From: a virus
Direction: 5' to 3' (one strand)
Virus genome (UHGV): UHGV-0144805
Length of the DNA stretch: 31,052 nt
Positions within the stretch are counted from its first letter, which is position 1; every line of letters starts with the position of its first letter. This document shows positions 1 through 3,000 of the stretch, one piece after another. Made by a program: the position numbers.

Positions 1-3000
1 AGATGTGTATAAGAGACAGCGGTAGTCCGTATGGAGAACACCCCGTTGAGGAAGAGGCCTGGCCGGAACCGTAACCGGCACTATAACGTTGAGAACACTG
101 GCGTAACGGGGTGATATCCCAATCTACGAATAAATGTTGCGTTGCAGCGTGACAACCAATGTTCTCAACATTGTGGTGAATGCACAGGCTGATGTGCCGC
201 AACTACAGTAGTGCGCGCTTTGCGGGGCTTGCTACAACCCTGTGTCGGAGTTCAGCACCGACCATCACAGTTTGATTCTCTGGCATGAGCATAACGCTGA
301 AATAAGTCCAGTCTGGTGCGGCCCGATCACCCGCCGTTAGCTCCACGAAACGGAGCACGTAACAGGTAAGAGCATTCTCCTGTAACGGGTTCATATCCCA
401 ATCTACAGGTCCACCAGGAATGCTCTTTCCGTTGCGGTGAATGCGGCTAAGCGCACGCGGAACAGTTAAAACAATCCTCCTTAATGGTTAAACATTCCGA
501 CGTTAATTGTTAACTGGTTAACGTCACCGGGAGGCACTCGGCACCGCAATCTAATAAATATGTCACTTTTATTGAGGGATAACCAATGTTCGGTAAATTG
601 TTCGGCAAGAAAGTCGCTTCTGCAAAAGTAGAGCTGAAAAAAGTTGAGAATCGCGATCTGATGGAGGCCATCATCGGTGGCTGTTTGTTGGTGTCTGCCG
701 CTGATGGTGAAATCGAAAAAGAAGAAACAGCGAAACTTGATCAGCTTGTCCGCTCTAATCCGCGTCTTAGTCATTTTGGTAACGAAATTACTGCAACAAT
801 TACCCGCTTTACCGAGCAACTGGAAGCTGGCTTCCGTGTTGGTCGCATGAATATCCTTCGCGAAATTGAAGATATCAAAAACGATCCAAAAGAAGCGGAA
901 GAAGTATTCGTTAACATGCTGACAATTGCAGAAGCGGACGGTGAAATCGAGCCAGCAGAACACAAAGTACTGGAAGAAGTAGGCCGTCGTTTAGGTCTTC
1001 GTGTGGAAGATTATCTGTAATGGCAAGCAAGGCACGTATCGCAATCGCCATTGGTTTTCTCTTGCTGTCCGTGCTGGTGGATTTCACCAGCACAATCCTG
1101 TCAGTTTTATCGGACGGGGCGTTGGTGGCAGTAGCTGTAACATTGGTATGGCCGATATTAAAAACAGCTTCTAAGGATCAGTGATGGGCTTCTGGGATTT
1201 TGCTGACAAGCATCCAATTGTTCTCGTTGTCATTGCTGGCATAGTTGTAGGCGGTATTGCTGGCGTCATAGAAGCACTCAGGAAACAGTAATCCGGCCCT
1301 TTAGCTCAGTGGTTAGAGCTGGCGACTCATAATCGCACGGTCACCGGTTCAAGTCCGGTAGGGGCCACCATATTTGGTTGTAACACGGCGTCTGGCACAT
1401 GCGTCGTTAGCGGTCTGGTGACGTTAAAAGGGGGGAACCTTGCCCCTAGCTCAGGCAACGAACCAGGTAGCCGGAATGTGCAAGCCACCGTTTGTTGTTT
1501 CTCGGGTAAAGGGATTCACCATCCTGGCGATTCGGTGTGACAGCCGGGAAGAGTCCGGCGCATTAATCCTGATTTTCTGGTGATGACTCATATCGTTAGG
1601 AGTGATTTGAGTATGCCGATTATATCTGACATTCAGCACGCCTGGGTGGAGTGCTAATGTCTGCATCCCCTCTTGAATCCATGCCAAATTCCCTTAGTGC
1701 AGAACAAGCTGTACTTGGTGGCTTAATGCTTGATAACTGCCGCTGGGATGAAGTTGCAGATCGTATAGTTGCTGATGATTTTTATACCAGTGCTCATCGT
1801 GAAATTTTCAGTGAGATGGAGAGGTTATTAAGTCATGGCAAACCGATTGATTTGATAACACTTGCTGAAGCACTTGAACAGAACGGTAAATTAGAACGCG
1901 CCGGTGGTTTTGCGTACCTTGCGGAGATGTCAAAGAACACGCCCAGCGCGGCAAATATTTGTGCTTATGCGGATATCGTTCGTGAACGCGCGGTTGTTCG
2001 TGAAATGATTTCCGTCGCAAATGAAATAGCCGAAGCTGGATATGCGCAGGATGGCAGGGGCAGCAATGAATTGCTGGATATGGCCGAGCGCCGCGTTTTT
2101 GAAATAGCTGAAAAACGACAAAAGAGCGGTAGTGGTCCAAAAGATATCGCCAGCATTCTCGATGCAACGGTATCTCGCATAGAAGAGTTGTTTCAGCGAC
2201 CACATGATGGTGTAACGGGGCTTGATACGGGATTTACCGATCTCAATAAGAAGACGGCAGGGCTTCAGCCGTCCGATCTCATCATTGTCGCCGCCCGCCC
2301 ATCTATGGGGAAGACCACGTTTGCGATGAATCTCGTCGAAAATGCCGCAGTCCGTAACTATAAGCCCGTATTGGTTTTTAGCCTTGAGATGCCGAGCCAC
2401 CAGCTGATGATGCGCTCACTGGCTTCTCTTGCACGCGTTGATCAGACTCGTATTCGAACAGGGCAACTTAACGACGAGGATTGGGCGCGGGTTTCTGGCG
2501 CAATGGGGATTCTGTTGGACAAGCAAAATATTTTTATTGATGACTCAAGCGCCCTGACACCTACAGAGCTTCGTTCCCGCGCTCGTCGTGTTTATAAAGA
2601 AAATGGTGGTTTGAGCATGATTATGATCGACTACCTGCAACTTATGCGCGTCCCCGAGCTGCAAGATAACCGAACGCTGGAAATTGCCGAGATTTCTCGC
2701 TCACTGAAGGCTTTGGCGAAGGAATTACAAGTACCGGTGGTGGCATTGTCACAACTTAATCGTTCACTTGAACAGCGTGCGGACAAACGACCGGTAAATT
2801 CAGATTTACGTGAATCAGGAGCAATTGAGCAGGACGCAGACCTGATCATGTTTCTGTATCGCGACGAAGTTTATCACCCGGAAAGCGAAATGAAGGGCAT
2901 TGCCGAGGTGATTATCGGTAAGCAACGAAATGGCCCAATTGGCACGGTGAGATTGGCTTTTAACGGCCAATACTCACGGTTTGATAACTATGCTGGTGCT

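Follow-up and report, generated by a model that had tools for sequence, protein, structure and literature searches.

A probable tandem array of diverged structured RNA modules, linked to tRNA genes and ending in an STnc100-like frame, in the ban operon of a P1-like phage-plasmid

Non-tRNA RNAs that are co-transcribed with tRNAs and freed by tRNA processing include 3'ETS-leuZ, a small RNA (sRNA) sponge from a 3' external transcribed spacer of Escherichia coli, and the stable RNAs of the phage T4 tRNA cluster. GOLLD and ROOL are ornate multi-helix RNAs of phages and prophages, of unknown function, that often lie beside tRNA genes. Among the sRNAs of prophages, PasD is Hfq-dependent, visible on Northern blots, and has targets identified by RNA interaction by ligation and sequencing (RIL-seq) (PMC8550237). 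STnc100 is structurally related to PasD (bioRxiv 10.64898/2026.05.13.724894) and has been reported 75 nt downstream of stx2B (PMC12370729). The current analysis concerns positions 20-585 of UHGV-0144805, a contig of a P1-like phage-plasmid whose whole 31,052-nt length is referred to as the window. This segment is the 3' two-thirds of a ∼930-nt non-protein-coding spacer that extends from tRNA-Thr to tciA in the C1-repressed ban operon. It probably holds, on the + strand (the sense strand of the operon), a tandem array of diverged RNA modules whose last member resembles STnc100.

The array consists of the tail of one unit (20-87) followed by two full units, A and B. In each unit, a long hairpin whose tip varies precedes a cloverleaf-like structure, here called the frame. 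The parts are as follows.

20-87 (+ strand): tail of the preceding unit; GCCGG (62-66) and CCGGC (75-79) form a T-like hairpin, 80-87 is a closing 3' strand, and the remainder is lost at the contig end.
88-169 (+ strand): long hairpin of unit A, a paralogue of P4, predicted from a repeat search and folding; stem 88-97 with 160-169, and a tip with copy 1 of the D1 motif (103-127) and a small hairpin (135-154).
172-269 (+ strand): frame of unit A, type I; closing helix 172-178 with 263-269, D-like hairpin 182-197, variable middle 198-243, T-like hairpin 244-262.
280-283 with 308-311 (+ strand): hairpin P1 of unit B, tentative; inner stem 288-290 with 296-298.
318-321 with 331-334 (+ strand): hairpin P2 of unit B.
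340-356 (+ strand): hairpin P3 of unit B, GCTCC-ACGAAAC-GGAGC.
358-436 (+ strand): long hairpin P4 of unit B; core stem 365-377 with 418-430, possible extension 358-363 with 431-436, and a tip with copy 2 of the D1 motif (382-406).
433-548 (+ strand): frame of unit B, type II, the STnc100-like core; closing helix 433-439 with 542-548, D-like hairpin 443-458, T-like hairpin 527-541.
459-498 and 499-525 (+ strand): hairpins 3 and 4 of the unit B frame; the loop of hairpin 3 contains CCUCCUUA (477-484), and hairpin 4 is a GTTAAC palindrome.

Homologues of unit B were collected by exact matches to the 17-mer of P3 (340-356), which retrieved at least 120 viral contigs from IMG/VR, representing 90 distinct contexts. 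These contexts share hairpins P1-P3, the 13-bp helix P4, the anchor GUUGUGGUGAAUGC, and a frame in which a 7-bp helix closes the structure and a variable middle separates a 4-bp arm (8-nt loop) from a 5-bp arm. The tip of P4 varies from 29 to 119 nt, and tip sequences are unrelated between phages. In the helix itself, all 13 pairs have changed on both sides among 45 distinct phage sequences, with 91.6% of the cells paired, a result reached by none of 500 shuffles; the 3' strands in this comparison are those that pair best with the 5' strand, and the 45 sequences kept are those in which they directly precede a conserved GTTGTGG-type anchor. Slid controls of P4 were 40-52% paired. Pairing is kept while the sequence changes freely, as illustrated by GCCAAAUCG with CGAUUUGGC. 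The frame is 98% paired in 20 distinct sequences, with compensatory, both-side changes in 9 of its 16 pairs, again not reached in any of 500 shuffles. Pairing reaches 92-95% in the inner P1 stem and in P2 (25 distinct sequences), with some compensatory changes. MAFFT mis-registers P1, with the result that RNAalifold found P2 and P3 alone in the P1-P3 stretch; when specified by hand, P1 was supported only in part.

G·U and A·C combinations are not equally frequent. P4 has 58 of the former against 11 of the latter, and the frame 17 against 0, an excess that identifies the + strand as the selected one. Folding of 360-560 gave a z-score of -4.9 for the + strand and -3.0 for the minus strand. At the level of sequence comparison, these data show structural selection on the helices, acting on the + strand. 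The original prediction had offered three roles for 20-585 (a binding-site array, a structured RNA, or a recombination junction) and had proposed RNA structure and covariance analysis and comparison with P1 and P7 as checks. The structured RNA is now backed by the covarying + strand helices, the strand-specific G·U pairs, and an Rfam match to STnc100. The binding-site array found no support: the GTTAAC palindrome makes up one of the hairpins in the STnc100-like core and is kept as a hairpin in Rac, HannyBb, and P7. A recombination junction is retained only in the evolutionary sense that relatives exchange cassettes at the conserved helices. P1 differs from the window at 461-525, and P7 replaces ∼195-432 with a tRNA-Ser unit, so that it has no upl segment (see below).

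The joints of this mosaic, including those of D6, which replaces the same ∼195-432 interval as P7, fall exactly at the conserved helices, and CP083412, a 99.8%-identical plasmid, carries an extra 215-nt unit compared with P1. Together with the GTTAAC-rich palindrome at 499-525, such joints could be taken to mean that the conserved blocks act as DNA, either as substrates and boundaries for the swapping of tRNA and cargo cassettes or as protein-binding palindromes, with no role as RNA. Sequence-specific sites, however, would not keep their pairing by compensatory change while their sequence varies freely, and the excess of G·U over A·C points to selection on one strand, which argues against a DNA-level explanation. 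Homologous recombination at repeats is an expected by-product of any repeated sequence. A purely DNA-level role is, for these reasons, very unlikely. The idea that the P4 arms are terminal inverted repeats of a miniature transposon was rejected, as these arms covary instead of having a fixed sequence.

A scan of genome contigs with the P3 17-mer, for which ∼70 matches are expected by chance in 596 Gb, mostly hit unrelated phyla by coincidence; the flanking motifs were present in only 4 of 120 matches, and no taxonomic breadth was revealed.

The repeats that first drew attention to this region are paralogous strands of the module helices. The 25-nt direct repeat (103-127 and 382-406, 23 of 25 positions matching) was confirmed, and its degenerate pattern occurs only at these two sites in 31 kb, with none expected. 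The inverted repeat around the first copy was also confirmed, as 23-nt arms (79-101 and 156-178) that are 83% complementary, and the GTTAAC palindrome at 499-525 corresponds in the predicted fold to a 10-bp stem (499-508 with 516-525). The shorter element GGTGAATGC does recur, at 175-183 and 436-444 rather than at about 174-182 and 433-441 as originally given. By itself it is marginally nonrandom (2 found versus 0.33 expected; 3 of 100 shuffles reach 2), and it forms the end of a 26-nt repeat with 77% identity (158-183 and 419-444). A second inverted repeat, absent from the original prediction, encloses copy 2 of the direct repeat (365-377 and 418-430, 92% complementary); the repeats are therefore two copies of one module, each with a hairpin enclosing the 25-mer followed by ...GTGGTGAATGC. 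Read from the sequence, the hairpin arms of units A and B differ by three compensatory pair changes (G-C to U-A, A-U to G-C, and G-C to A-U), which gave a first hint of structural selection.

The same elements recur beyond P1-like phages. The 25-nt repeat corresponds to a tip motif, D1 (stem, AC, GGG-yUCAUAW-CCC, AAUC, stem), that is found repeatedly and covaries in the unrelated phages L081, L093, and L116. The unit A frame agrees with the phage-wide consensus at 25 of 28 positions, with no matches expected by chance, and a regular expression for the whole frame found the same frame in 40 loci. In a 90%-identical Shigella plasmid (L015), T98 and G159 form a G·U pair on the + strand of the unit A hairpin. 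Positions 280-356 are homologous to the interval between the Q antiterminator and holin genes in lambdoid phages of Klebsiella and Cronobacter. Alignment with CP083412 shows that a full preceding unit is present upstream of the truncated tail in that plasmid. The interval 20-103 also matches a noncoding gap of the Citrobacter phage phiNP.

In phiNP (L010), this gap is a 1-kb unannotated stretch (2089-3082) 3' of a repressor-like gene, with a D1-type motif at 2948-2966, and is probably another array of these RNA modules.

The segment 431-439, GUUGCGGUG, can pair either upstream, with 358-363, extending P4, or downstream, with 542-548, closing the STnc100-like core. It has a U in other phages versus a C in P1-like elements, and both partner strands change along with it, which suggests two mutually exclusive helices.

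The last frame is a terminator-less, below-threshold relative of the prophage sRNA STnc100/PasD. The Rfam model RF02076 (STnc100) matches 433-548 with 42.0 bits and an E value of 2.7e-7 over model positions 31-147 of 206, and relatives score 33-43 bits. The multi-helix junction of the STnc100 core, closed by UGGUG...CACCA and maintained by covariation, is present at 433-548. The core of the window and that of P1, which differ in sequence over 461-525, have the same five-way junction fold and the same two hairpins. No Rfam family was detected for the type I frame of unit A; a search of 20-320 at E values of up to 10 yielded only chance matches to microRNAs and long noncoding RNAs, and the upstream P1-P4 module had no Rfam match at an E value of 1 or lower. 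As in STnc100, PasD1, and PasD2, the core junction here comes in a phage or prophage context, in several copies per genome, and with a conserved frame around a variable middle (PMC8550237; bioRxiv 10.64898/2026.05.13.724894). In contrast to STnc100, which is a free-standing gene, the frame is embedded in an operon, 37 nt before tciA, and unit A represents a separate sequence type (type I).

Homologues of the core are present in 4,392 of the 5,426 complete E. coli genomes (81%), in up to 10 copies per genome. In the Qin prophage of E. coli K-12 (L257), DicF (1128-1179) is followed by an STnc100-like element (1177-1386) that reaches into the start of dicB (from 1354); this element scores 34.4 bits against STnc100 and has no RefSeq annotation. 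The order in Rac-SA53 is a DicF-like element, the core, and kilR. Both spacers are homologous to 433-548, with a gap of 27-37 nt between the element and the first gene of a module related to host division, in the orientation of an early phage operon. The P1-like elements differ from them in having tRNA genes and extra units between the dicF-like region, which is annotated in P1 at the head of the same operon, and the core, and in the downstream gene, which codes for a TerB-family protein rather than for DicB or Kil. A riboswitch or leader specific for tciA was rejected as the sole role of the core, given that this core also lies before dicB and kilR and after stx2B (PMC12370729).

In four viral contigs with lambdoid late regions (L044, L046, L062, and L080), the array ends in a strong intrinsic terminator ∼100 nt past the frame. 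The last part of such arrays could be released as a terminated sRNA, unlike in P1.

The apical loop of hairpin 3 contains CCTCCTTA (477-484), which is identical to the anti-Shine-Dalgarno 3' end of 16S rRNA; the same loop reads UCUCCUUAU in P1, and the motif is not found in Rac. It could be a seed against ribosome-binding sites, or a chance match. A cis-acting anti-Shine-Dalgarno role of CCUCCUUA for tciA was considered and dropped, leaving only the observation: the pairing is possible, but the motif is not kept in Rac and the pairing does not appear in minimum free energy folds.

Outside the P1-like elements, 40 tRNA genes were found on the same strand 45, ∼68, or ∼146 nt upstream of P3, which shows the module to be a stereotyped 3' neighbor of tRNA genes in many temperate enterobacterial phages. 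It shares this place just 3' of tRNA genes with 3'ETS-leuZ and the T4 stable RNAs but has no sequence similarity to them, is far larger and more structured, and its release by processing is only presumed. The resemblance to GOLLD and ROOL is thematic only: their Rfam models had no match at an E value of 1 or lower in 1-1700, nor at the gathering score in the whole window, and the modules differ from them in their hosts (here, Enterobacteriaceae) and in their smaller unit (∼270 nt).

The relation to tRNA itself is closer. The tips of relatives often carry T-arm sequences, such as GGGTTCGAATCCC, some of their frames contain D-arm and T-arm sequences, and one frame was called a pseudo-tRNA, its acceptor stem formed by the closing helix. 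At a relaxed threshold, ARAGORN recognized one frame as tRNA-Met with an intron. As modeled, the frame has cloverleaf geometry (a closing helix of 7 bp, one arm of 4 bp with a loop of 8 nt, and another of 5 bp), and in type I the loops GCUGAU and AUCAGC are complementary, G-to-A being found only together with C-to-U, as would fit a loop-loop contact like that in the tRNA elbow. The frame differs from tRNA in that it lacks the T-loop and D-loop consensus and a CCA context, has an oversized and variable middle, and is not recognized by tRNA detectors. Judging from these similarities, the modules probably descend from tRNA genes; the case for such descent is built on the intermediate forms because the detectors call no part of 20-585 a tRNA.

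The same intermediate forms, and the variation in tRNA content of the cluster between relatives, are also what would be seen if the units were decaying tRNA pseudogenes and duplicated spacer left by turnover of the tRNA cluster, with no present function. Neutral decay, however, would not preserve pairs by compensatory change (13 of 13 in P4, 9 of 16 in the frame) across very diverged phages, nor would it keep the core in 81% of complete E. coli genomes, and such debris is quite an unlikely explanation of the array.

The tRNA sets of this operon vary among relatives (Arg, Tyr, Asn, Thr, and Ser).

On the minus strand, the array overlaps two open reading frames (ORFs) that are annotated in P1 and RCS47.

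203-394 (minus strand): upl (P1_gp073), 63 aa, intact with an ATG start, colinear with the annotated upl of P1 and RCS47.
20-202 (minus strand): 5' part of plp (P1_gp072, putative lipoprotein), with a TTG start at 202, truncated by the contig end.

The original statement that the region has no convincing ORF was thus formally wrong. The region also aligns colinearly with these annotated genes, an outcome that had been named in advance as pointing to a decayed coding gene; the noncoding interpretation survives because upl and plp fail the tests of a real gene. The explanation they would call for is that the locus encodes two small proteins, Upl and the N-terminal part of Plp, with the repeats either incidental or reflecting protein repeats. 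Besides the annotation, this agrees with the intact upl ORF in the window, the plp frame remaining open to the contig edge, and the match of Upl to two PHROG families of unknown function. In a six-frame test of the 69 contexts, out of the 90, that are diverged and not P1-like, however, the upl frame is interrupted by in-frame stops in 51 and has its start codon in none, and in P7 and D6 a tRNA-Ser unit takes the place of the entire upl segment. Between the window and L015, where the upl start is lost, upl has 7 synonymous and 12 nonsynonymous changes, falling 1, 8, and 10 times at codon positions 1, 2, and 3; these small numbers reveal no clear constraint on the protein. The counts for plp are 2 synonymous and 7 nonsynonymous changes.

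The plp frame comprises 139 aa in CP083412 and 123 aa in P7, in which its start region has been replaced. Its TTG start has no Shine-Dalgarno sequence, and the frame overlaps tRNA-Thr in P1. The N-terminal sequence, LRHISLCIHHNVENIG..., has no hydrophobic signal segment, no lipoprotein predictor having been run. Neither ORF contains a Pfam domain, and Plp belongs to no PHROG family. The RefSeq Prokaryotic Genome Annotation Pipeline (PGAP) annotated nothing here in a plasmid that is 100% identical, and both upl and plp were dispensable in CRISPR interference screens (PMC10695390). The peptide ENALTC, which recurs in both ORFs, is the reverse translation of the repeated strand of the P4 hairpin. 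Two real proteins are highly improbable at this locus; upl and plp are probably not genes but by-products of the conserved RNA sequence.

A further minus-strand ORF of 160 aa (481-963), antisense to tciA, is open also in P7 and CP083412 but is annotated nowhere and is probably spurious.

That 20-585 encodes a functional + strand RNA structure of some kind is likely. The full statement, namely a + strand tandem array of diverged RNA modules that is linked to the tRNA cluster, ends in an STnc100-like frame, and has upl and plp as by-products, is given a probability of about 0.6. Several observations weigh against it. The exact-match retrieval means that conservation of P3 cannot be judged from the IMG/VR set, and the outer stem of P1 is only 68% paired, with weak covariation, in the 25 distinct sequences. 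Pairing guided the choice of 3' strands for the frame closing helix, and an assumed loop length fixed the T-stem positions; either choice favors the model. The STnc100 match of 42.0 bits lies below the gathering threshold of 47 and, instead of spanning the full model (1-206), covers only 31-147, with the 5' tail and the 3' terminator hairpin missing. The gene 3' of STnc100-like cores varies (tciA, dicB, kilR, or an stx-adjacent position), which argues against a gene-specific leader function. ARAGORN found no tRNA gene in 1-620 at the default and 90% thresholds, and the Rfam tRNA model had no match at an E value of up to 10 in 20-320, or of up to 1 in 1-1700 except for a real tRNA at 1295. Finally, the upl ORF is intact in 21 of 21 P1-like versions, which are at least 98% identical and hence uninformative either way.

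The array can be pictured as one module repeated in tandem and diverged, in which the long helix P4, its tip free to vary, leads into a frame; unit B also has the three small 5' hairpins P1-P3. In P1 and P7, the C1-controlled promoter Pban, annotated upstream together with C1 operators, drives the ban operon on the + strand. The array would be transcribed from Pban along with the tRNAs, and its transcript would be cut into stable structured RNAs, the conserved stems serving as scaffolds for processing and stability. The variable loops or the last frame might then act as base-pairing regulators, or else as a protective 5' domain of the tciABC mRNA. The last frame may protect or regulate this mRNA, a role that its homologues may likewise have for dicB and kilR. 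The roles considered most likely are those of processed RNA scaffolds or sRNAs of the ban operon.

A bolder and rather doubtful proposal is that the full unit (P1-P3, P4 with an interchangeable tip, and a frame derived from tRNA whose middle can likewise be exchanged; ∼270-400 nt) represents a discrete new class of modular structured RNA located at the 3' end of tRNA clusters of temperate enterobacterial phages. If so, the scaffold might display its swappable loops as programmable seeds or as tRNA-arm decoys for host nucleases that target tRNAs; STnc100, PasD, and the dicF-dicB spacer would be fragments of a larger family; and GUUGYGGUG (431-439), which pairs either way and covaries with both partners, would be a structural switch.

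The core is of a known kind, STnc100/PasD. What appears to be new is the tandem arrangement in P1-like elements, the terminator-less form embedded in an operon, and the upstream P1-P4 module. A full-text literature search for diagnostic sequences of the array found no paper containing them in the library searched. The array corrects a 20-year-old annotation of the model phage P1, in which plp and upl are probably artefacts over a conserved RNA. It also ties together three subjects that have been handled apart: the STnc100/PasD family of sRNAs from Salmonella and E. coli prophages, the leader sequences of dicF-dicB and kilR in prophages of K-12, and the spacers within tRNA clusters of phages. 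With the core so widespread in E. coli, and often in multiple copies, the structural model could help explain the processing of early and late prophage transcripts as well as the restraint of toxic genes such as dicB, kil, and tciA. The P1-P4 part, which has no Rfam family, could be submitted as one.

The remaining features of 1-585 are the two ends.

1-19 (no strand): adapter AGATGTGTATAAGAGACAG, which marks the contig end and is not biological sequence.
549-585 (+ strand): leader of tciA, with the Shine-Dalgarno sequence GAGGGA at ∼574-579 and the tciA ATG at 586.

The adapter is the Tn5/Nextera mosaic end, and base 20 is the first matching base in every phage, plasmid, and E. coli database match. 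A plasmid that is 100% identical over 20-585 shows the order of the locus: dmt, tRNA-Asn, tRNA-Thr, a 927-nt stretch without annotated features, terB (tciA), tciB, tRNA-Ile, and dnaB (ban). TciA matches the TerB domain of Pfam with an E value of 2e-14. A scan of the + strand of 1-585 for promoters and terminators found no promoter-like and no terminator-like site.

Farther downstream, the tRNA at 1295-1370 has the anticodon CAT and was identified as Met by ARAGORN but is annotated as Ile (lysidine-dependent) in P1 and RefSeq. At 25611-25800, the P1 immI region, an isrK-like RNA (60.8 bits) directly precedes the C4 antisense RNA (75.9 bits).

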